DNA of 64,000 bases from Treponemataceae bacterium (GTDB lineage: Bacteria > Spirochaetota > Spirochaetia > Treponematales > Rectinemataceae): the NCBI GenBank assembly GCA_963667725.2, contig CAXXHO010000003.1, positions 352,001-416,000 of the forward strand. The letters are read 5' to 3'. This document shows, one piece after another, positions 1 through 12,417 of this stretch; positions within the stretch are counted from its first letter, which is position 1; each line of letters begins with the position of its first letter. Under the pieces are notes generated by a model. That model worked only from the letters and a program-made list of their open reading frames with translations, made no database searches and was not told the origin of the DNA. Both the position numbers and the translations under genes were made by a program.

Positions 1-139
1 GCTAGGCATAGTCATATCTTCTTAAAGATTCAAGAAAACATTTTCTGTTTCCGGATGATGCGCCTTGATTGCTTTATAATTTGAATATACTGAACAGTAT
101 ATACTCTAGTAATTGAATGGGAACTTTTTACAAATATTT

Positions 140-237
140 ATGTTAGATTGCTTTATTCTTAGAATCATCTGGTTACATTGTTCATCCTAACCGACTCTCA
201 AAGTATTTTATATAGAACTGTATAATTGATGTTAGGC
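140..237 (+). promoter_or_regulatory. Candidate attI-like primary recombination site at the head of the cassette array
   Basis: GTTAGGC at 231-237 is the reverse complement of GCCTAAC (941-947) ending cassette 1. Further IntI-box-like heptamers occur at 142 (GTTAGAT), 172 (GTTACAT) and inverted at 185 (TCCTAAC). There is no attC-type L''/L' palindrome, and a TATAAT lies at 221-226. Confidence 0.5.
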
Positions 238-271
238 ATATTAAGTATTGTTAAAAATTAGGGTTTAATAA

Positions 272-946
272 ATGATAAAAAAAATAGATTGTTTTACTGG
301 TCATCATAATTTAGAGAAATGTATAAATAAGACTAATTCGGAATATCGTCTATTTGACCCAGGCTTATATCTATATAATTTATTATGTAATACTTCTCAA
401 GATGAAAAGTACAAATCAGAATATATAAAACTTGTATATACAACACTTGTTGCTTGGGGAATGAATTCTCGGGGTGCAAAACTAAGTAAATATGACGTTT
501 TTGAAGCTTCAATTCTTGACAACCAATCAGTATTTGAAAGACTATCAATCAATAAAATAGAAAAATGTACAATTGAAAGTATAAAAAGTGATCTGAAAAT
601 ACTGTTTAAAAATTTAAATCTTGTAAGGAAAGGGAATCCGAAATTAGTTACATTTACAAAGACCGTACATTTTTTCTTAACAGATTTAATAGTTCCAATG
701 GACCGAACATATACAATACCATTTTTTCACACTTCATGGAGGTCAGAATATATCAAACAGTTTGATCTGTTATGTAAAATGGAGAATTTGTTCATGGATT
801 TTGCAGCAAACAATTATGAAAATATAAATAAATTTAAAGATGAAAAATGGAATAGAAATATTCCTAAAATAATAGATAGTTTAGTAATTGGATATGAATA
901 TTTTGAAAAAGCAAATAAGAAAAGACATAAAAAGAAAAATGCCTAA
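272..946 (+). CDS. Gene cassette 1: hypothetical protein, possibly HhH-GPD glycosylase-like
   Basis: 224-aa ORF whose stop codon lies inside the attC R'' box (GCCTAAC). The motif TKTVHFFLTDLIVPMD resembles the K-x-x-H...P-x-D segment of HhH-type glycosylase-like proteins; the function is inference. Confidence 0.75.
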   Translation: MIKKIDCFTGHHNLEKCINKTNSEYRLFDPGLYLYNLLCNTSQDEKYKSEYIKLVYTTLVAWGMNSRGAKLSKYDVFEASILDNQSVFERLSINKIEKCTIESIKSDLKILFKNLNLVRKGNPKLVTFTKTVHFFLTDLIVPMDRTYTIPFFHTSWRSEYIKQFDLLCKMENLFMDFAANNYENINKFKDEKWNRNIPKIIDSLVIGYEYFEKANKKRHKKKNA

Positions 947-1064
947 CAAATGCTTCAACCTTATAAATCCTTTAGCACGTTTTGTGCAGAAATCTCATGC
1001 ACAAAACGCGCCAAGCCTTCGCAGTAGCTCAGGCACGCATTTAAAGGTTAAGCCAATGTTAGAT
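941..1064 (+). repeat. attC site 1
   Basis: GCCTAAC-AAATG-CTTCAACC ... GGTTAAG-CCAAT-GTTAGAT. R''/L''/L'/R' layout with an extra base in L'' and an internal palindrome (CGTTTTGTGCA/TGCACAAAACG). Confidence 0.92.
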
Positions 1065-1160
1065 TGTCGCCTTCGGCGCAAAAGTAGACATGTTGAATAA
1101 AATATCAATTATATTAAATCTATGCTAGATGAACGCCAAGTGGTAGGATAGGAGATCAAA

Positions 1161-2612
1161 ATGTACTTTAGTGATTTATTTGGTATCGATCAGAAACAAT
1201 TAGATGATTATGGTGCTTTAAATGTCTCACTAATAAATGATCTTCCACTCTTTATTGATCCTTTCTTGTTATTCAATAGCAAGAAAACAGAGTATATACG
1301 CTTACATGAAGAAATAATAAAGTATGTTATCTTTTTACGAGATGAAGCGTTAGCTGGGAAAATTGATAAAGGTTTAATAAGGCGATGGTTTTATTTTTCT
1401 GAGGTTAAACAAAACTGGCTTGGTTTCTGTTTAACTGGAAATTCAGGTACTGGACTTGGTGATGATTTTGCAGAAAGTTTATACGCAAACTTCTCTACAG
1501 TATTAAAAGATTTTGGCAATGAGACAATAGCAAAAAGCCATATTGAGAAATTATGCCTGTTTAAAGAAGGGATTGGAAAAGACAATATTAGTGATTTTAC
1601 AACAAACCTAATAAAACAATATTTACTTGAATACACTCAAGCATTTGCAAAGAAATATCTACAGGCTGATAGATGTAAAGAAATAATTGTTGATAAAGTA
1701 TATTTCAATTATAAGACTAGATCTTGGGTACAGCAAAAATATTTTCTACCCTATTTTGCTAATGACTATGTACTTCTTACACCACTTGATATCTTAACAA
1801 AAGATGATACTTGGATTAATAAAGCGTCATTATTTAGTACATTCAATAGTGTAGTAAGCTCGATTGAAAACATCGAATTGCGTTCACAATTAAATGACTA
1901 CTTCAGAAGCCGACTTCCCAAAGCACCAAGATCAAGAGATATTGAAGCTGCAAAGAGTTCTGTTCTTGCTAAGTATCCTGAGCTTATTGACTACTTTATC
2001 CGGTATAAGGAAAAGTATGGGAATCAAGCTGAAAGAATTAGTAAGAAAAAAGTTGCTGATACATATCAAAAGTTTGTAGCTGAATTAAGTGCATTTAGCT
2101 CAGTTCTGAAAGAAAGTACCAATTTTTATAATACTCCAACAGATTCGTATCAGGAAGCTCTAAAGAGAGTTATGTATCTAAAACAAGTGATTGAGAAAAA
2201 TGATGGATATAGACTTTTCTACCATAAGAATGAAGTAGTTGGAAATGAAAAAGATTTACATATTCTCTTTAGATTAGCTTGGTTCAATACTGTTTTTTCT
2301 GTTGATAGTGAGGTTAATAATGGTAGAGGTCCAGTAGATTATAAGATATCTAAAGGATTTTCTGACTCAACTTTAGTTGAATTCAAATTGGCTAGTAATA
2401 CTAAGCTTGAACAAAATATTAAAAAACAGCTGGAAATATATTTAGATGTAAATGCAACAAAAAAAGGAATAAAGGTAATTCTATTTTATACATTACATGA
2501 AGAAATTAAAGTAAAAGAACTATTAAAAAAATTGAAGATAGATAATAAAGAGAATGTTATTCTAATTGATGCACGAAAAGATAATAAGAAAAGCGCTTCA
2601 AATGTAAAATAA
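1161..2612 (+). CDS. Gene cassette 2: hypothetical protein with a C-terminal PD-(D/E)xK nuclease-like domain
   Basis: 483-aa ORF with RBS GGAG. The C-terminus E-V-N-N-G-R-G-P-V-D-Y-K...V-E-F-K fits the E...PxD...ExK restriction-endonuclease pattern. Flanked by attC sites. Confidence 0.75.
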   Translation: MYFSDLFGIDQKQLDDYGALNVSLINDLPLFIDPFLLFNSKKTEYIRLHEEIIKYVIFLRDEALAGKIDKGLIRRWFYFSEVKQNWLGFCLTGNSGTGLGDDFAESLYANFSTVLKDFGNETIAKSHIEKLCLFKEGIGKDNISDFTTNLIKQYLLEYTQAFAKKYLQADRCKEIIVDKVYFNYKTRSWVQQKYFLPYFANDYVLLTPLDILTKDDTWINKASLFSTFNSVVSSIENIELRSQLNDYFRSRLPKAPRSRDIEAAKSSVLAKYPELIDYFIRYKEKYGNQAERISKKKVADTYQKFVAELSAFSSVLKESTNFYNTPTDSYQEALKRVMYLKQVIEKNDGYRLFYHKNEVVGNEKDLHILFRLAWFNTVFSVDSEVNNGRGPVDYKISKGFSDSTLVEFKLASNTKLEQNIKKQLEIYLDVNATKKGIKVILFYTLHEEIKVKELLKKLKIDNKENVILIDARKDNKKSASNVK

Positions 2613-2620
2613 AGCAATTC

Positions 2621-2725
2621 ATCTAATAAAAGCTTCAATCTTATAACACTCTTTGTCATGGTTTGTGCAGAACAACAATGCACAAACCATGACAAAGAGT
2701 GTTAAGGGTTAAGCCAATGCTCTAC
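2621..2725 (+). repeat. attC site 2 (degenerate core)
   Basis: ATCTAAT-AAAAG-CTTCAATC ... GGTTAAG-CCAAT-GCTCTAC with a perfect 26-bp inverted repeat (TAACACTCTTTGTCATGGTTTGTGCA). AAC is changed to AAT and GTT to GCT. Confidence 0.88.
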
Positions 2726-2788
2726 GGAACCTTTGTGCAAAAATTAAAAATACTTTATATTATCATTATAATATTGAAGGAGCAGTAA

Positions 2789-4237
2789 ATGAGCTGCAAT
2801 TTTAAAGAAATTGATTGGGGTCCAGATGAAGCAAAAAATGATCATAATCTTGAGAAGTATTTTGTAAAGATTCCCCAATATCAAGATATTTTATTGGGGA
2901 AAAAAAGGTATATAATTGGAAGAAAAGGAACAGGAAAAACAGCAATACTAGAGAGTATTCGAATAGAATCAGAAAAGAATCCATTATGGCAGTTTGCTGA
3001 TATATCATTAAAGAATTTTCCATTATCTATAATTAGAAACCTTAGAGATAAAAATTATCGTGATAAATCACAATATGTTCCAGCATGGTCATTCCTGTTG
3101 TTAATTGAATTAGCTAAAATGATATGTTCTGATGAATCCTCTAAGCCATTTGAAGAAGTCTTTCGTCTTAAAGAATTCTTGATTAGCAATAGATTCCTTG
3201 AGGGTACAATAACAGAAACAGCAACATTTCTTGAAGAAAATGAAGCCAAAGTTAATGTTGCATCTGAATGGTTAGGAGCTGAATATACAAAAAAGTATGG
3301 AAAAGAAATTAATACTTCAATTGTGTATCATAGAGTATTAGAAATTCTTATTGCGAAAATTAATCGAATTAATTCTGACTCAACTTATTTTTTATTGGTT
3401 GACGAGTTAGATGAAGGTTATAAAGCGAAAGATTCTAATATTAGGTTGTTAATATTGTCCTTATTGTGGAGCATAGAAAATTTAGCATTACTATTTAAAT
3501 ATGATAATATTAGGCTTCGATGTGTATTAGCGTTAAGATCAGATATTTATGAGACTTTAGAAGATAATGATTTAAATAAATATGATGATTACTTAATAAA
3601 ACTAATTTGGAATCCAAAACTGTTAGGGAATTATTCTATTTTAGAAATTGTTAATAAGAGAATAGTAGCTTCTTATCCTCAATTAGCTGATGATGAAAAT
3701 CCATGGTTGAAAATAGCAAATCAATATGATAGAAGTATTCCAATAAGAAGAGGTGGGCTTTGGGAGTTTATGTATAATAGAACATATGAAAGACCAAGAG
3801 ATATAATTAAATTTTTGAAGATCTGTCAAAACAAAACAAGAAGTAGAATATTAGATTATTCTATAGTAAAAGATACAGAACTAGATTATTCTACATGGCT
3901 TTGGGGAGAAATAAGAGATGAATTACATTCTCATTTAGCAGTATGGCAAGAAGCTTTACAGGCTATAACAAGAGTAAATAAAGGTAAATTTACCAGAGAA
4001 GAATATACCTATCAATTACAAGCTAGTTTAAAAATTGTTAAATGGCTTGAGGCAAATTACAAGACAGTAGATGATCTTATTGAAATTCTATTTGATTATA
4101 GTATAATTGGTAATTACTATCCAGAGACGGAAAGATGGATATTTAAATATAAAGATACAACATTAGCATGGGATCGTGATGCAAATATAATTGTTCACTT
4201 TGGCCTAGTTAAAAAATTAAGAATAAGGACTTATTAA
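2789..4237 (+). CDS. Gene cassette 3: P-loop ATPase (Sll1717/FunZ-like)
   Basis: Walker A GRKGTGKT, Walker B LLVDELDE, RSDIY and RPRDII motifs, RBS AGGAG; flanked by attC sites. Confidence 0.8.
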   Translation: MSCNFKEIDWGPDEAKNDHNLEKYFVKIPQYQDILLGKKRYIIGRKGTGKTAILESIRIESEKNPLWQFADISLKNFPLSIIRNLRDKNYRDKSQYVPAWSFLLLIELAKMICSDESSKPFEEVFRLKEFLISNRFLEGTITETATFLEENEAKVNVASEWLGAEYTKKYGKEINTSIVYHRVLEILIAKINRINSDSTYFLLVDELDEGYKAKDSNIRLLILSLLWSIENLALLFKYDNIRLRCVLALRSDIYETLEDNDLNKYDDYLIKLIWNPKLLGNYSILEIVNKRIVASYPQLADDENPWLKIANQYDRSIPIRRGGLWEFMYNRTYERPRDIIKFLKICQNKTRSRILDYSIVKDTELDYSTWLWGEIRDELHSHLAVWQEALQAITRVNKGKFTREEYTYQLQASLKIVKWLEANYKTVDDLIEILFDYSIIGNYYPETERWIFKYKDTTLAWDRDANIIVHFGLVKKLRIRTY

Positions 4238-4245
4238 AACAAGAC

Positions 4246-4368
4246 GAAGAACAACTGCTTCTACCTTATAAATCCTTTGGTATGGTTTGTGTATAAATGT
4301 CATGCACAAACCACGCTAAGCCTTCGCTTCGCTCAAACGCTGATTTAAAGGTTAAGCCAATGTTATGT
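4246..4368 (+). repeat. attC site 3
   Basis: GAAGAAC-AACTG-CTTCTACC ... GGTTAAG-CCAAT-GTTATGT; clearly homologous to attC1 and attC4. Confidence 0.9.
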
Positions 4369-4439
4369 AGACCCTTCGGGAAATAAAATATTATAAAAAA
4401 ATAAATTTAAGTGTATACATACTAATCTAAGGATGTTGT

Positions 4440-5285
4440 ATGAATCAACCAGGTCCAGTATTTAATATTTTAGTACATCATGTAGAGCTAAGTCCAAGTC
4501 TGAGTGGGCTTGATATTGGATATGAATCTGGTAATTGGAGAAATGATCAATTAGCAGAATTTGTAATGGATTGGTTACCAGAATTTGCATTACCACTTCA
4601 GGAATGTGAAAAAATAGGTCATTATAATGCTGTTTCGTTTATTCGAAGAGCTGCAAGAATTGTTTATGAAACAGAAAAATTTTCAAAACGAGGAGAATTT
4701 GGAGAATTATTTTTACATATAGCAATGAGACAAATATTTAATTCATTGCCCGCAATATCTAAAATATATTATAAATCTGCTAATAATGATACTGTAAAGG
4801 GATTTGATGCTGTACATGTAGTTCCAATGCAAGATGGGCTTGAACTCTGGATAGGAGAAGCGAAATTTTATAGCGATATTAATGCTGCAATTCATGATGT
4901 AGTTAATGAACTAACTATACATACACAAATTGATTATTTACGAACTGAGTTTACATTAATAACAAATAAGATTGATGAAAAATTCCCACATTATGAAGTA
5001 TTAAAAAATTTGATGGATCCAAGAACATCACTAGATGAAATATTTAAAAGAGCTTGTATTCCTGTTCTACTGACTTACAATAGTGAAGTAATAAATAAAT
5101 ATAATAGAAATGATGGCGACTACATAGAAGATTTTAGAAAAGAAATATTAAGTAATTATAAGAAATTCTCAGAAAGCAAATTGCCTGAAAATATTCATAT
5201 ACATTTATTCCTTTTTCCAATAAAAGAAAAGGAACGACTTATTGAAGCATTAGATGCGAGGTTGAAAAAATGGCAACAAATTTAA
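4440..5285 (+). CDS. hamA: Hachiman anti-phage protein HamA (DUF1837)
   Basis: Motifs GEFGELFLH, KGFDAVH and LWIGEAKFY are typical of DUF1837; overlaps the downstream SF2 helicase gene. Confidence 0.88.
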   Translation: MNQPGPVFNILVHHVELSPSLSGLDIGYESGNWRNDQLAEFVMDWLPEFALPLQECEKIGHYNAVSFIRRAARIVYETEKFSKRGEFGELFLHIAMRQIFNSLPAISKIYYKSANNDTVKGFDAVHVVPMQDGLELWIGEAKFYSDINAAIHDVVNELTIHTQIDYLRTEFTLITNKIDEKFPHYEVLKNLMDPRTSLDEIFKRACIPVLLTYNSEVINKYNRNDGDYIEDFRKEILSNYKKFSESKLPENIHIHLFLFPIKEKERLIEALDARLKKWQQI

Positions 5286-7405
5286 GCTATTCGCAGATGA
5301 TAGAAACGTTTAATAGTATTGAAAGTATTAGAAAACAAGAATTTAATTTACTGAAAAATATATCTTCAATATGTAATAATCCAGAAAAACAAGACGAAGG
5401 TAGAGAACTTGTTTTGAGAGTTCTTGAAAATAGAAATACTTTTATTAATACAAAACAAATAGTTAACTCACTAGTTTCTGCAGTAGGACTCTATCCATAT
5501 CTAGATCAGTCTATTATTGATTATAAAGATGCACTTTTGTATGAATACAATCGTCCACTATCATTTAGTAAAAGTAATATTGTATTTCATAAAGAGCAAA
5601 ATGAAATATATCGACGTCTACTTAAAGGTGATAGTGTAATATTAAGTGCTCCAACTAGCTTTGGAAAAAGCAAAATAATTGATGCAATAATTGCTTCTGA
5701 AAAATACAATAACATTGCAATTATTGTACCTACACTAGCTCTTATAGATGAAACAAGAAAAAGAGTATATAACATAGCTGAAAAGTATAAAGTTATTACT
5801 CATACTTCACAAAAGGCTAGTACTTATAATATTTTTGTCTTCACAGCAGAGAGGGCTGTAGCTTATGAAGAATTTCCCAAAATTGATTTTTTTGTCGTAG
5901 ATGAGTTTTATAAAATTGACGCAATTGAAGAAGATAATAGTAGGACAGTAGCATTAAATATTGCCTTCCGTAAGTTGCTTAGTTTTGGTGGTCAGTTTTA
6001 TATGTTGGGTCCAAGTATAGAAAAAATTCCTAAAGGTATAGAAGAAAAGTATCGGTGTTTTTTTTATCCTACAAAATTTAGTACAGTAGTATCTGAAACT
6101 CATTTTGTAAAAAAAAGCGGTAATGATATTTTTGATCTGGTTAAATTATGTTCTGAATTAAAAGATCCTACGCTAATCTATTGTAGATCACCAGCAAGAG
6201 CAAATGAAATAGCAAAAGCTTTTTGTGAATTCTATCCAAATAAGAAAAGTAAGATTTTAGATGGCGCTTCATCATGGGCTTCTAAAAATTACCATCCTGA
6301 ATGGATATGGGCTAAGGCAATTTCAAAAGGTATAGGCATTCATCATGGTAGAATACCAAGATCACTTGCACAGTTTACAATAAAAATGTTTAATGATTTA
6401 ATAATTGATTTCTTAATTTGTACAACAACTTTAATTGAAGGTGTAAATACTAAAGCCAAAAATGTCATAATATTTGATGATACAATAGGTAAAAAAGCAT
6501 TTGATTTTTTTACTTTCAATAATATAAGAGGTAGATCTGGTAGAATGTTTGAACACTTTATTGGACATGTATATCTGTTTTCTGCTCCTCCGTCCAAAGA
6601 ATTGCCTTTTGTAGACTTTCCTTTAGTAACACAAAATGAAAGAGTTCCTGATAGTTTACTAGTTCAATTAGATGAAATAGAGTTAAATCCTAACACAATT
6701 AGTCGTACAAGGCTCTGGACAGAACAAACAATTCTTCCGATTACAATTCTTCGACAAAATGCAACAATTGACCCAGAATCTCAAATAGAATTAGCGGAGG
6801 AAATTATTAATGATATTGATACTGTATATGAATTATTAAATTGGATTGGAATACCTAAATATAGACAATTAAAATATTCATGTGAAATAATATGGAAATA
6901 TTTTTATAAAGAAAATAGAAGTTTCGCGGTCTATTCGGCTAATCAGTTAACTTTTAAAATCAATCAATTGCAAAGAGATCCAAGTATTCCCACAAGAGTA
7001 CTCCAAGAACTAAATCAAGGAAAGTATTCAGCAAAAGACCCCGACGATGCAGTCGAAAAAGTATTATTTTTTGATCGAAATTGGGCAGGATTTGAATTAC
7101 CCAAATCGTTAATGGCACTTTCTAGAATACAGGAGTTTATTTTTAAAAGCAGGGGATTATCAGGAGGAGATTATAGTTTCTTTGCAAGTCAAATAGAATC
7201 ATTATTTCAAGAGCCAATACTTATTTCTTTAGAGGAATATGGATTACCGATGCAATTGACAAAAAAAATAATTCAATATATAGGGACGGATAATGACCTT
7301 GATATTGCTTTAAAATATTTAAAAAGAGTTGATATTGAAAAATTACCAATAAATGAGTTTGAAAAACTATTGGTAAGTGATGTAAAACATTACTTATCAA
7401 AATAA
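5270..7405 (+). CDS. hamB: Hachiman SF2 (Ski2-like) helicase HamB
   Basis: SAPTSFGKS (motif I), VPTLAL, DEFY (motif II), HHG, TTTLIEGVN and GRSGR (motif VI); paired with hamA. Confidence 0.88.
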   Translation: MATNLSYSQMIETFNSIESIRKQEFNLLKNISSICNNPEKQDEGRELVLRVLENRNTFINTKQIVNSLVSAVGLYPYLDQSIIDYKDALLYEYNRPLSFSKSNIVFHKEQNEIYRRLLKGDSVILSAPTSFGKSKIIDAIIASEKYNNIAIIVPTLALIDETRKRVYNIAEKYKVITHTSQKASTYNIFVFTAERAVAYEEFPKIDFFVVDEFYKIDAIEEDNSRTVALNIAFRKLLSFGGQFYMLGPSIEKIPKGIEEKYRCFFYPTKFSTVVSETHFVKKSGNDIFDLVKLCSELKDPTLIYCRSPARANEIAKAFCEFYPNKKSKILDGASSWASKNYHPEWIWAKAISKGIGIHHGRIPRSLAQFTIKMFNDLIIDFLICTTTLIEGVNTKAKNVIIFDDTIGKKAFDFFTFNNIRGRSGRMFEHFIGHVYLFSAPPSKELPFVDFPLVTQNERVPDSLLVQLDEIELNPNTISRTRLWTEQTILPITILRQNATIDPESQIELAEEIINDIDTVYELLNWIGIPKYRQLKYSCEIIWKYFYKENRSFAVYSANQLTFKINQLQRDPSIPTRVLQELNQGKYSAKDPDDAVEKVLFFDRNWAGFELPKSLMALSRIQEFIFKSRGLSGGDYSFFASQIESLFQEPILISLEEYGLPMQLTKKIIQYIGTDNDLDIALKYLKRVDIEKLPINEFEKLLVSDVKHYLSK

Positions 7406-7426
7406 TTATGATGATAGAATAGAGAT

Positions 7427-7550
7427 GCATAACAACCGCTTCAACCTATTAAGCCTTTTGTCATGGTTTTTTCGAGAAGATGACGCAAAAACCACGCCAA
7501 TCCTTCGCTTCGCTCAGGAGCAGGCGTTAAGGGTTAAGCTAATGTTAGGA
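7427..7550 (+). repeat. attC site 4
   Basis: GCATAAC-AACCG-CTTCAACC ... GGTTAAG-CTAAT-GTTAGGA. R'' matches the GTTATGT at the start of the hamAB cassette with one G:T. Confidence 0.92.
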
Positions 7551-7994
7551 TATGGATTATAAAACAATAGAGTATTTATAATGATCCATTATATAAAAAA
7601 ATGGCAACTGTCCAAGATGAGGAGTTAGCTTTTTCCATAATATGAAGCTTTAACAAGACTGGATTTAGCACTTTTAAAACTAGAATAATTGTTAATTAAA
7701 ACAAATTAAAATAAATAATGATAAATTGAAAAGATGATAAATTTAATGAACCCTATGGTACCTCCTTCACCAATACAATTTAACAACTCCTTACATATAT
7801 TTCTAAGCCTCAATTCTGTATACATGTTAGATGCATTCTAGTCTAAACCTGTTTCCATATGGAGGATTGCTATATCCCCTTTATAAGATGTATAAGCTTA
7901 TTATAAATAGGACTTCCGTAACTTATTCATTGGGACAGTAGGATAGATAATGAACCATTATATGGGGGAATGTATATCTCCATCCTGTATATAC

Positions 7995-8116: not shown

Positions 8117-9718
8117 CTATGCAGCTAGTTTGCGCCTGATTGAGTAAAAACGTTCCCGAGCATGACCTGTCTCGTAGGTAATATCATACCCATCGGAGTT
8201 CCCAACCATTTTTGACCACTTCTGCGCAAACCAATTCGCATTGTACCGATATGACAGTTGCTGACTCTTCATATACTCAGCAAAATACTTTGCAAGGGCA
8301 TTTGCCTTGTACTTCTCAGACTCAAGGGATGGGCTGAAACGTTCATAAAGGTAGTCAACAAAGCCTTGGAAGTTCGACATTTCGCTATCAAAAGACTTGT
8401 CTTCTTGTGAAAGGCTAAAGTCAAAGCAGTCAACCTCTGGATAGAAGATGGAAAGGAGTTTAGAAATTTGATATGACCAAGCTTCAAACTTTACTGCTGG
8501 ATGGACAACCTGAGTATGTGATTCATCCCCTCTTTCTGCCAACAGTTTTAACCCTGCAAAGATATCAGCAAGAACTCCCTCTCTCGCCTTAAGCAACTCC
8601 TCCAGTTTCTTCATCACCTCCGCACCATCCCCTTCCTTCATCAACCCCCTATCTTTCATCCTTATCACTACCAGCCGAGCTAAAAGATCTTCATTAATTG
8701 ATTCCTCAGTATTAAACGTCGCAAGGTACACCTTGTTATTAGGAGCCTTGAGATGTGCTTGGAGGAAGAACCATGCCTTGATGGTTGGATCGGTAATAGA
8801 TCGAGATATCCGAGTAAGCTTTTGGGGATTAGGCTTTACTATATTGTCAAAGAGGGCAAAGCGGTTCGAGAGGCCGGGAATGCCATTAACAATAGCATCG
8901 TCTTTTCCATCCCCTTCCATGTTAAGTGGCATGAAGCCTTGCACTATATGACTAGCATATTCAGCAACAGTCGTCTTCCCTGCTGATCGTGATGGAGCTA
9001 CGATCCCAAACAAAGGCCTTTTGCCATCATAGTATCGGGTAAGGAATGGTGACAGCAGTGCGGCTGCTAGCCTGTACTCATCTTTTATGGAGGCAGTTGT
9101 GAATGTACTCATTAGCTTCCTGAATTCGCCTGTGAACTGGCATGCATCCCCTTCGAATCGATCCTGACAGTTGCCAAGGTAGAAGGTCTGTGGGTCTTGG
9201 ACAATCTCCGGGACACAAGAGAATCGATTTATGGTCTTGGCATTCATCTTCAGGAACTCGAAGTACTTTAGTTCGGTAATTGGCATACCTGACTTGAATT
9301 CAAGGAGGAATCCCTTATTGCTGAGCCAAGGATGCATCTGGTTGAGATTCTTGAAGAAAGTACTGGGGTCATTACTATCCATGAGGTAGCGATGCCCTGA
9401 GCTGTCTTGAAAGGCCATAAGGAAAGGGAGAGGGGCTTTCATGTCATCTGTATAGTCAGTGAAGGCAGTCTGTTCAGTCTTGATCGTCGTTTTCGAGCTG
9501 TCCTTTTTATCAGGGGAGAGCCGGAAATCTTTTCTATAGTTTCGAATTATCAACTTCCCAGAATCAGTGCGGTTACTTTCCGGCTCCTGATGCTCGTCGG
9601 CTTCATCTGGGGCTAGGTCTTGTTCTGGTGCATCAGGCGTCTTTTGCATAGTTGGCTGTATTGCATCGCTACACTGAACGTCATTAGAACGTTCACCCCC
9701 ATCATTTTTTTCATTCAT
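8117..9718 (-). CDS. Mobile-element P-loop NTPase, SF3/D5-like replication helicase candidate
   Basis: 533 aa with a Walker A-like APSRSAGKT, Walker B FALFDN, motif-C-like LATFN and RBS AGGAG; position typical of pri/rep in integrative elements. Confidence 0.65.
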   Translation of the reverse strand: MNEKNDGGERSNDVQCSDAIQPTMQKTPDAPEQDLAPDEADEHQEPESNRTDSGKLIIRNYRKDFRLSPDKKDSSKTTIKTEQTAFTDYTDDMKAPLPFLMAFQDSSGHRYLMDSNDPSTFFKNLNQMHPWLSNKGFLLEFKSGMPITELKYFEFLKMNAKTINRFSCVPEIVQDPQTFYLGNCQDRFEGDACQFTGEFRKLMSTFTTASIKDEYRLAAALLSPFLTRYYDGKRPLFGIVAPSRSAGKTTVAEYASHIVQGFMPLNMEGDGKDDAIVNGIPGLSNRFALFDNIVKPNPQKLTRISRSITDPTIKAWFFLQAHLKAPNNKVYLATFNTEESINEDLLARLVVIRMKDRGLMKEGDGAEVMKKLEELLKAREGVLADIFAGLKLLAERGDESHTQVVHPAVKFEAWSYQISKLLSIFYPEVDCFDFSLSQEDKSFDSEMSNFQGFVDYLYERFSPSLESEKYKANALAKYFAEYMKSQQLSYRYNANWFAQKWSKMVGNSDGYDITYETGHARERFYSIRRKLAA

Positions 9719-10503: not shown

Positions 10504-10758
10504 TCAGTTATTGATAGGTATTAGATTTTCATCAGTAAGGGTAAGCCAGTTAATAACAGTTGCCCTGCTGTACTTTTTCCTTCCTCCGATCTTCGCTTCA
10601 GACTTTCCACCGTTTGGCTGTAAATAGGTTTTATTACATGAAGTTTTGTAGTTCAGTCCTTTTAGCGTACAAGCCTCCTCAAGGGAGAACCATTGTTTTG
10701 GTGGGATGAACGCCTGATCCATAGGGAGTGAAGTACTATTTTCTAATTTTTCTTGCAT
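10504..10758 (-). CDS. Small HTH DNA-binding protein (excisionase/AlpA-like)
   Basis: 84 aa with the pattern WFSLEEAC...GRKKYSRATVINWL and RBS GGAG; immediately downstream of the integrase. Confidence 0.65.
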   Translation of the reverse strand: MQEKLENSTSLPMDQAFIPPKQWFSLEEACTLKGLNYKTSCNKTYLQPNGGKSEAKIGGRKKYSRATVINWLTLTDENLIPINN

Positions 10759-10823: not shown

Positions 10824-12212
10824 TTAACTAATTAAGCTGATAGGAATTGTTCCATTTCCCCCCTTGAGCTGGGTGCTCTGCTCTTCTGGAAAAATGAAGG
10901 GAAGCAGTTTTGTCCTGAATATTTTGCGATACAGCTCCCCTTGTTCAGGTGTAACATGATAATAATAATCTGTCATCTCTTCTGAAGAATGGCCAATTGA
11001 TTGCCTCAATACTTCATCAGGCATTTCTCCTCGATACTCTGAATTATTAAGATGCCGCCATGCATGGAAATCTAAATCGCGTCTTTGTTGCTCCTTTCGG
11101 CTAATACCAATAGTCTCAAGTACTTTTCGCAAATGATCAAGAAATAAGTCTGGATTCATAGGACAGTCCTTATTATTGATATCCCAAAAGATAAAATTGT
11201 TTTTATGGGGGTTTTGAGAGTATAGCCATTTCAGTCGATTAAGTAGTATCAAATCGGTATATACTACTCGTGATTTTTTATTTTTCGTTGTCTTTAGCTC
11301 TTGCTCTTGACGTTCCCAATTATGCCTGATAAAGAGACGCACACCATTGAAGTCAAGGTCTTGAATTTGCAGTGCAGCCACTTCCCCTGCACGCAACCCA
11401 TGACTTGCCGCTATCTGTGATGCAAGCTTAGATCGCTCATCTGGCCAATCTGCCGCTAAGACTTTTTTCATCTCATCCAGAGTAAGTATCTCCCTATGTT
11501 TTGTTGAAAGAGCGAGTTTCCGCATGTTAGCTGAAGGGTTTTCATGGATGATCCCCAACCTTGTAGCTTCACCTAATGGTGTGGTGACACATCCGAGAAT
11601 TGTATTGATTGTTCGTGGCTTCAACCCTTTAGGGTTAGAGGGGGAATATCGAGGGAGTTGATTTTTGAACTCCTCAAGGCTAACCGTGGTTATTGATCGT
11701 ATACGCATCTCTTTGAGGAATGGCTTTGCATATCGTTCGATGTAAGCTTTATTAGCTCTACAATATTGCTTTCCAATACTCTGGCCGCTCTCCCGCTTGT
11801 CCCGAATGTAGGGGGACGTGTCCCAGTCCCAAAATGCTAGAAGGTACTCTAAAAAGACTGGATTAGCTCTATTCATATCGACTCCTGACAATACAAGTGA
11901 TGTCTTAGAAAGGAGGTCATCGACCGATAGAACTTGTCCGGCTTCTATTATACCTTTCCCTAGAAGAAAGCGCGTTAGGTAAGTCTTAACCTGTCCGTCA
12001 GTAATGATATTGGTTTTTTCTGGTTTGGGAGGGAGGCCTCCATAGGAGGTTAGCCAACTCTGTGCCATTCGCTCAGCATCACGTTTATTTGTTTTTCCGG
12101 TAGAGTGGCCGGGCAAGTAGCAATGAAGTTCTTTATCCCAAAATTGAACATAGATATAAGGGGAGTCATCTCGCGTATAGAGAGAGTAAAAATTGTGTAC
12201 AGTGTTTTCCAT
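10824..12212 (-). CDS. Tyrosine recombinase (phage-type integrase)
   Basis: Catalytic set GLRAGE (R), TKNKK (K), FHAWRH (HxxR), IGHS and Y. Start placed at the ATG at 12212 with RBS AAGGA. Adjacent to the tRNA-Ala 3' end and lacks the IntI-specific insertion. Confidence 0.93.
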   Translation of the reverse strand: MENTVHNFYSLYTRDDSPYIYVQFWDKELHCYLPGHSTGKTNKRDAERMAQSWLTSYGGLPPKPEKTNIITDGQVKTYLTRFLLGKGIIEAGQVLSVDDLLSKTSLVLSGVDMNRANPVFLEYLLAFWDWDTSPYIRDKRESGQSIGKQYCRANKAYIERYAKPFLKEMRIRSITTVSLEEFKNQLPRYSPSNPKGLKPRTINTILGCVTTPLGEATRLGIIHENPSANMRKLALSTKHREILTLDEMKKVLAADWPDERSKLASQIAASHGLRAGEVAALQIQDLDFNGVRLFIRHNWERQEQELKTTKNKKSRVVYTDLILLNRLKWLYSQNPHKNNFIFWDINNKDCPMNPDLFLDHLRKVLETIGISRKEQQRRDLDFHAWRHLNNSEYRGEMPDEVLRQSIGHSSEEMTDYYYHVTPEQGELYRKIFRTKLLPFIFPEEQSTQLKGGNGTIPISLIS

Positions 12213-12228
12213 AACTATCCTTTGCAAG

Positions 12229-12252
12229 GTGACTCTTACAGTCACTCTTACA
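12229..12252. repeat. 12-bp tandem repeat, candidate arm-type integrase binding sites
   Basis: GTGACTCTTACA followed by GTCACTCTTACA, between the integrase start and the tRNA. Confidence 0.55.
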
Positions 12253-12344
12253 GCTAGATAGTTACAGGAAGAAAAACATTGCTTTCAAAATCAGTAGGTT
12301 TTCGTAAACCTTTATAGTATAAAAACTTACGAAGAAAAAAATAG

Positions 12345-12417
12345 TGGAGAATAGGGGATTCGAACCCCTGACCTATAGATTGCGAACCTATCGCTCTACC
12401 AACTGAGCTAATTCCCC
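12345..12417 (-). tRNA. tRNA-Ala(CGC)
   Basis: GGGGAATTAGCTCAGTTGGTAGAGCGATAGGTTCGCAATCTATAGGTCAGGGGTTCGAATCCCCTATTCTCCA; cloverleaf with anticodon CGC, CCA tail not encoded. Confidence 0.96.

Follow-up and report, generated by a model that had tools for sequence, protein, structure and literature searches.

An integron cassette array without an integron integrase on a tRNA-Ala element of a spirochaete, and its possible reliance on host IntI and a LoaP-like antiterminator

How can an array of integron cassettes be loaded and expressed on an integrative element which has no integron integrase? The question is raised by a 64,000-nucleotide stretch of the genome of a Treponemataceae bacterium (Rectinemataceae in GTDB; GCA_963667725.2), here called the window, which runs from position 352001 (window position 1) to position 416000 of contig C3 of the source genome (G000). 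Near its beginning are four gene cassettes, the last of which carries the Hachiman genes hamAB, and all of which belong to an element inserted at a tRNA-Ala gene. On balance we favour the view that this 27-kb element carries a minimal integron platform (promoter, leader, attI and cassettes) served in trans by the IntI and LoaP proteins of the host.

An earlier, sequence-only reading of the window had described four imperfect palindromes with attC architecture. Their R and L boxes, bottom-strand folds and identity to resident sites agree with this, and the four repeats (124, 105, 123 and 124 nt; Table 1) are confirmed at the sequence level as true attC sites of an integron cassette array. Each contains a 4-nt spacer and an L'' box one base longer than L', giving an extrahelical base. 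The R'' triplet is AAC in attC1, attC3 and attC4 (AAT in attC2), and the R' triplet is GTT in the same three sites (GCT in attC2). Bottom-strand folding gave z-scores of -7.7, -9.4, -5.2 and -4.1 for attC1 to attC4, values which none of 200 shuffles equalled in any case, and the sites are 87-94% identical to attC sites associated with resident intI genes (attC2 aligned over 75 nt only). They lie on the same strand and each ends one promoterless gene block. The closures between the first heptamer of each cassette and its own R'' box (GTTAGGC/GCCTAAC, GTTAGAT/ATCTAAT, GCTCTAC/GAAGAAC and GTTATGT/GCATAAC) were found as claimed, with 7/7 agreement for cassette 1 (read at position 231) and 6/7, 5/7 and 6/7 for cassettes 2 to 4, and they support the independent insertion of the cassettes. 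The resident arrays show the same closure bias; on contig C5, for instance, the four variable bases match fully to the own cassette in 84 of 156 cases, and to the next cassette in 10 of 156.

The element is bounded by a 48-bp repeat of the tRNA-Ala 3' half and covers 27.1 kb (C3:337282-364386). Its tyrosine integrase and the direct repeat of the tRNA 3' end are those of a tRNA-targeting integrative element. The only intact integrase in the window had been called phage-type rather than IntI, and its profile score is indeed far under the IntI cut-off (Table 1). No IntI match was found within C3:337282-364386, and the array, lacking the adjacent intI of a complete integron and possessing at least two attC sites, falls within the definition of a cluster of attC sites lacking integron-integrases (CALIN). 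The attC anatomy and the 48-bp repeat thus bear out the proposal of an integron cassette array on a tRNA-Ala integrative element without intI. Contamination of the source assembly is 6%; in an independent assembly the element is contiguous except for breaks at repeats.

A profile built from the four window sites recovered 262 related attC sites in the genome. Arrays of 169, 38 and 31 sites lie beside three intact intI genes on contigs C5 (where the array spans 153 kb), C1 and C7, respectively; three arrays on C3, of 4, 5 and 13 sites, have no intI, and there are two singletons genome-wide. In the resident integrons intI and cassettes are co-oriented, with attI behind intI. The three IntI proteins are 410-431 amino acids long with an N-terminal extension of ca. 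100-120 residues, and the C1 and C7 integrons share similar upstream genes. Since three intact IntI proteins and the same attC family are present elsewhere in the genome, the window element need not encode IntI. We regard it as very probable that the platform was loaded by an IntI of the host type.

A weight matrix for attI, trained on 19 intI-adjacent sites only, was scanned over 89,514 genomic GTT positions. The three resident intI sites, which were part of the training set, hold the first three ranks (33 bits) and are followed by C3:1641048 (23.3 bits), 518927 (16.1), 352231 (15.7; window position 231), 1654064 (12.2) and 521195 (12.1), after which the score falls to 8.1 bits. All five non-resident matches lie within integrase-less arrays, four at array heads and one internally. 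By sequence, then, the window array owns an attI at its head. Just upstream of it, at window 144-190, is a GTTAG ... CTAAC pair ca. 40 bp apart, possibly a decayed site. Two other integrated elements with an integrase-less platform are present at C3:518495-532000 and C3:1635000-1656150; they encode an integrase, ParB, and replication or repressor functions. A 44-bp tRNA-Pro repeat delimits one of them; for the element at 519 kb the search revealed no left attachment repeat of more than 15 bp. The element at C3:1635000-1656150 has two tandem promoter-hairpin-attI modules (C3:1654476 and 1641463).

The heads of these arrays share a module consisting of a promoter and, ca. 50 nt on, a hairpin with an invariant top. 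In the window array the sigma-70-like promoter (C3:351856-351883) and the hairpin (ca. C3:351912-351963) are 40-145 bp upstream of window base 1. The promoter-plus-hairpin pattern has seven matches in the genome, all of them at cassette platforms (three with intI and four with an integrase-less attI), and the reversed control gave none. Across three elements the DNA separating promoter, hairpin and attI has diverged, while these parts themselves are retained at all four integrase-less platforms; the window leader resembles that of the C5 intI gene (81% over 54 nt). Rfam gave no family match for the leader. Among 24 hairpin instances, selected by a pattern which fixes the top bases and not the pairing, 93.9% of the cells were paired with 92 double-sided changes (0 of 500 shuffles), and 8 of the 11 stem pairs were altered on both sides; slid controls were much lower. 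The unpaired bases are invariant while the stems covary freely.

As in the source genome, the hairpin accompanies integrons in relatives, being present at 23 of 40 intI loci from 38 of them (0.06 in shuffles). At 13 loci, 10 of which helped to define the motif, it is upstream of a co-oriented intI; at the other 10 it is downstream of intI on the opposite strand and has a compensated 2-bp stem. In both of the latter loci checked (2/2) the attC sites share the strand of the hairpin, from which it would appear that the module follows cassette transcription and not intI. In a second integron clade of the family (G041:C7:231000-251000 and loci L164-L174) intI faces the opposite way from the cassettes, and the promoter and hairpin that serve the cassettes lie beyond its 3' end, so that transcription from there would pass through intI in antisense. 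Among named records, those which combine this leader with a related intI come mostly from spirochaetes of the Rectinemataceae and Treponemataceae. At G046:C50:172598 the promoter and hairpin are kept and intI has apparently been lost; cassette-like genes follow, with no attC by profile.

The hairpin is not confined to integrons. It heads three CRISPR-cas loci of relatives (type III cas operons or cas1-cas2), where it may exert antitermination control of CRISPR-Cas, and with its promoter it precedes four polysaccharide operons of other spirochaetes, their functions being read from translations. A prophage from another genus (G014:C3:806000-826000), which has genes for terminase and portal proteins, carries the promoter and hairpin ahead of attC sites interrupted by group II intron remnants; no intI was found within the 20 kb examined, and no clear attI. 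Viral contigs gave no match to the promoter-plus-hairpin pattern and one match to the hairpin 17-mer, which follows a repressor gene, is itself followed by three AT-rich unknown genes and has no attC, an arrangement which suggests a cargo slot with the same signal. Most of the 52 exact 17-mer matches in named genomes look like chance, and of nine pattern matches in 400 other spirochaete genomes about three look real.

The source genome encodes a LoaP-like NusG paralogue (C3:1093753-1094250, minus strand; best family NF033641, 118.7 bits against a cut-off of 125). Its best solved relative is 8F5G (E 1e-14), which we take to be a LoaP-RNA structure. In Bacillus velezensis a hairpin is needed for the LoaP antitermination of dfn and mln, and LoaP occurs in Spirochaetota (PMC12691694, consulted in part). 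The ten apical bases of the present hairpin, CTGTTTCGGC, are identical to those of the dfn hairpin (supplement to PMC12691694), and its two single-base bulges are in the same register, both comparisons being made by eye; like dfn, it is of the UNCG type and lies in a 5' leader, with the NusG paralogue encoded elsewhere. By analogy, the leader hairpin is likely to be bound by the LoaP-like protein. In B. velezensis the operons known to be targeted direct antibiotic synthesis and have terminators in their leaders. Here the targets would be cas operons and integron arrays, and the terminator search was negative. Full-text and wider searches, in a collection with few subscription papers and none of the three primary LoaP papers (in the supplements of which spirochaete targets may be listed), yielded no literature linking LoaP to integrons, and the regulatory link is apparently undescribed.

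We therefore propose the following scheme, which remains conditional throughout. Resident IntI enzymes, working in trans, would place cassettes into the attI of the element; the element would thereby sample the host cassette pool, and would have kept long, defence-type cassettes. The hairpin would be the loading site for LoaP. RNA polymerase starting at the cassette promoter would become resistant to pausing or termination and would cross the strongly folded attC sites, whose RNA folds (-32 to -52 kcal/mol in the window) could pause it. The whole 7.3-kb array, including the last-placed Hachiman genes, would then be expressed without reshuffling; that cassette read-through is an effect of the hairpin we hold to be somewhat better than an even chance. 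The likely ancestor of the platform is a co-oriented integron of the Treponema type from which intI was lost. A wider role for LoaP, as trans-acting master antiterminator of immunity in this spirochaete family (integrons, CRISPR-cas, surface-polysaccharide operons and mobile integrase-less platforms), is put forward tentatively. If the scheme is true, long arrays would be transcribed processively rather than silenced with distance from the promoter, and a dedicated antitermination signal at a cassette promoter would add a further, new layer to the control of integrons. A module of ca. 400 bp (promoter, hairpin and attI) would suffice for mobile elements to borrow the host integrase and antiterminator, and would define a minimal parasite module by which they reach the host cassette pool. 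LoaP would then extend beyond metabolite and polysaccharide operons to anti-phage immunity.

A number of observations weigh against this scheme. The score of the window attI is about half that of the resident sites, the core triplets of attC2 are degenerate, the resident arrays contain no homolog of any of the five cargo proteins, and searches of 68 relatives with the queries used recovered no counterpart of cassette 2, cassette 3 or hamA. The lack of cargo homologs, the weaker attI and the degenerate attC2 together imply that the array may be frozen, or may have been loaded in another host. By the scan used, 17 of the 40 intI loci have no hairpin, and the 23 which have it include the 10 used to define the motif and kin which are not independent. 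The LoaP-like protein scores under its family cut-off, and as its gene is near-universal in the family its co-occurrence with the hairpin is uninformative. Lastly, a simple scan, which may miss weak NusA-dependent sites, found no intrinsic sense-strand terminator in leader or array.

Part of this would be expected were the array a frozen relic, that is, an integron piece captured once which has lost intI and become a fixed defence island, with the hairpin as baggage or serving expression only. The degenerate attC2, the low attI score, the lack of an excision junction in four read runs and the similarity of the window leader to the C5 intI leader are all in keeping with such an origin. We think it unlikely, since retention of promoter, hairpin and attI in four platforms despite the divergence of the DNA between them implies selection, and since the sister element described below ends in a different cassette with an attC of the same family. 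It is also conceivable that the platform is active and that its hairpin serves RNA stability, processing or the binding of some other protein in long AT-rich transcripts. The missing terminator, the sub-threshold score of the LoaP-like protein and the position of its gene at the head of another operon of its own would fit; ten identical apical bases and matching bulges shared with a tested LoaP ligand, invariant unpaired bases on freely covarying stems, and occurrence ahead of long polysaccharide and cas operons make this improbable. The least credible reading, to which we give hardly any weight, is that the repeats are elements of the repetitive extragenic palindrome (REP) or miniature inverted-repeat transposable element (MITE) type, or terminators, within an ordinary defence island. 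A family of 262 genomic copies might suggest this, but 258 of them have a same-strand neighbour at most 4.5 kb away, three of the arrays are beside intI, and the closure signature and an attI are present. The genome-wide check for a dispersed repeat thus found the copies bound to arrays, and a REP/MITE identity was rejected on that organization.

The platform served in trans can be compared with several known systems, the sources being excerpts in each case. A Shewanella prophage, M16-3, has a CALIN with its own attI, and a complete integron also resides on the prophage (Qi et al. 2023, PMC9892861); an integrase-less, attI-bearing array in a prophage is thus already known. Defence genes in cassettes are well known too. 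The window element likewise combines attI and cassettes with no adjacent intI on an integrated mobile element, but it has no intI at all, and here the design recurs in three elements of the same genome, together with a conserved promoter-hairpin leader. In the "reverse" chromosomal integron of Treponema denticola intI is co-oriented with the cassettes (PMC4909258), as in the resident integrons described here, which also have attI behind intI; the window platform differs in having no intI, and the excerpt of PMC4909258 consulted mentions no leader hairpin for T. denticola. In the standard model promoter-distal cassettes are poorly expressed and are reshuffled for use, and in Vibrio integrons, whose cassettes are short, distal defence cassettes are described as showing little expression before they are relocated to attI (Darracq et al., bioRxiv 10.1101/2024.07.02.601686). 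Dag glycosylases are defence proteins with a helix-hairpin-helix (HhH) glycosylase fold found in a cassette (bioRxiv 10.1101/2025.10.29.685425). The window cassettes similarly carry defence genes and an HhH glycosylase-like fold; unlike those of Vibrio, three of the four exceed 1.6 kb, and a putative read-through signal heads the array.

The cassettes are 827, 1661, 1643 and 3182 bp long, compared with a median resident cassette spacing of 786 bp, 7% of spacings being at least 1.6 kb (n=231). The assignment of hamAB to Hachiman is upheld by Pfam and by full-length PADLOC matches (HamA, E 1e-121; HamB, E 8e-245). Both genes are intact and adjacent, as is usual for Hachiman, and are here packaged as a single 3.2-kb cassette; this is the only established defence system in the array. 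All four cassettes had been thought to be defence modules. This is certain for Hachiman and likely for cassette 1, on the strength of its HhH glycosylase fold, and plausible at most for cassettes 2 and 3; the array thus supplies three candidate defence genes. A structure model of the cassette 1 protein (predicted local distance difference test score, pLDDT, 87) had DNA glycosylases as 16 of its top 17 matches, all weak (best Z 6.3, root-mean-square deviation 5.0 over 159). No Foldseek match was obtained at E≤0.001, and a sequence search of solved structures was likewise empty. K130, D144 and D202 are invariant among the six homologs found. Dag1 has the catalytic-type residues K118, D132 and D184 (bioRxiv 10.1101/2025.10.29.685425, in part), and K130/D144 are spaced like its K118/D132, residue positions and not Dag sequences being compared. 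A reasonable guess is that the protein excises bases from modified phage DNA. The N-terminal half of the widespread DUF8370/DUF8371 protein of cassette 2 partially matches the PADLOC candidate PDC-M36A, and a PD-(D/E)xK-like motif was read by eye at its C-terminus; a single-sequence structure model was unusable (pLDDT 37). No effector domain was recognized in the cassette 3 ATPase, and a literature search pairing Sll1717 with defence gave nothing relevant.

PADLOC matches at E≤1e-8 involve 3 of 5 open reading frames (ORFs) in the window array, 4 of 11 in that of the element at 519 kb (NucC-like, DUF4297-HerA, kinase), 4 of 18 in that of the element at 1636 kb (three being generic methyltransferase matches) and 15 of 196 ORFs of at least 100 amino acids in the resident arrays, just three of them strong; these counts miss ORFs spanning locus borders. 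By such counts the two short mobile arrays are defence-leaning and the third is not. The NucC-like, DUF4297-HerA and kinase genes are cargo of the element at C3:518495-532000.

Table 1. Features of the cassette array and adjoining part of the tRNA-Ala element (window coordinates unless a contig is given)
Feature	Position	Strand	Basis or remark
Leader, untranslated, 3' part between promoter-hairpin and attI	1..206	+	comparison of array heads
attI-like site, crossover between G231 and T232	207..234	+	15.7 bits, rank 6/89,514
Cassette 1 gene, 224 amino acids, HhH DNA glycosylase-like fold, Dag-like candidate	272..946	+	structure model
attC1	941..1064	+	box anatomy, fold, identity to resident sites
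Cassette 2 gene, 483 amino acids, DUF8370/DUF8371	1161..2612	+	profile matches
attC2, short, both core triplets degenerate	2621..2725	+	box anatomy, fold
Cassette 3 gene, 482 amino acids, P-loop ATPase, Sll1717 family	2789..4237	+	NF047389 272 bits, cut-off 75
attC3	4246..4368	+	box anatomy, fold
hamA (Hachiman), cassette 4	4440..5285	+	Pfam HamA E 1e-64; PADLOC
hamB helicase (Hachiman), cassette 4	5270..7405	+	PADLOC
attC4, final site of array	7427..7550	+	box anatomy, fold
533-amino acid gene, Walker A-like motif, no clear family	8117..9718	-	profile scans; not at this position in sister contig
84-amino acid gene adjoining integrase, excisionase-like by position only	10504..10758	-	kept in sister element
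Phage-type tyrosine integrase of element, not IntI	10824..12245	-	TIGR02249 17.6 bits, cut-off 265
48-bp attachment core in tRNA-Ala 3' half (tRNA 12344-12417, minus)	12339..12386		second copy C3:337282-337329

The sister element is represented by a 2.8-kb metagenome contig (L122) with an integrase 84% identical at the same tRNA site. It ends in an attC of the same family which closes a different gene, one case of other cargo at the same place. It was the only metagenome contig of its kind, and the viral contigs searched held no further sister elements. Nine loci of the family with weaker integrase matches (29-53% identity) had no hairpin or attC in the stretches examined. The notion of a swappable defence hotspot is therefore sustained in part: a different last cassette occurs in this one short contig, and no excised circle was seen, there being no clean junction in four read runs or in assembled contigs, which cannot reveal rare circles. 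Read joints inside attC repeats with short sides were considered as excision junctions and taken to be repeat artefacts.

A UpxY-like gene at C5:65380-65850 of the source genome has neighbours which look foreign to a spirochaete and is possibly assembly contamination. No virion gene was found among the ORFs of the 27-kb element that were scanned, which were not all of them. In the rest of the element (C3:337282-352000; L011:5282-20000) are a type I restriction-modification operon, which runs divergently to the array, and genes for AbiGi, a radical SAM/SPASM protein, a protein with BspA-type repeats and a primase-polymerase-like protein.

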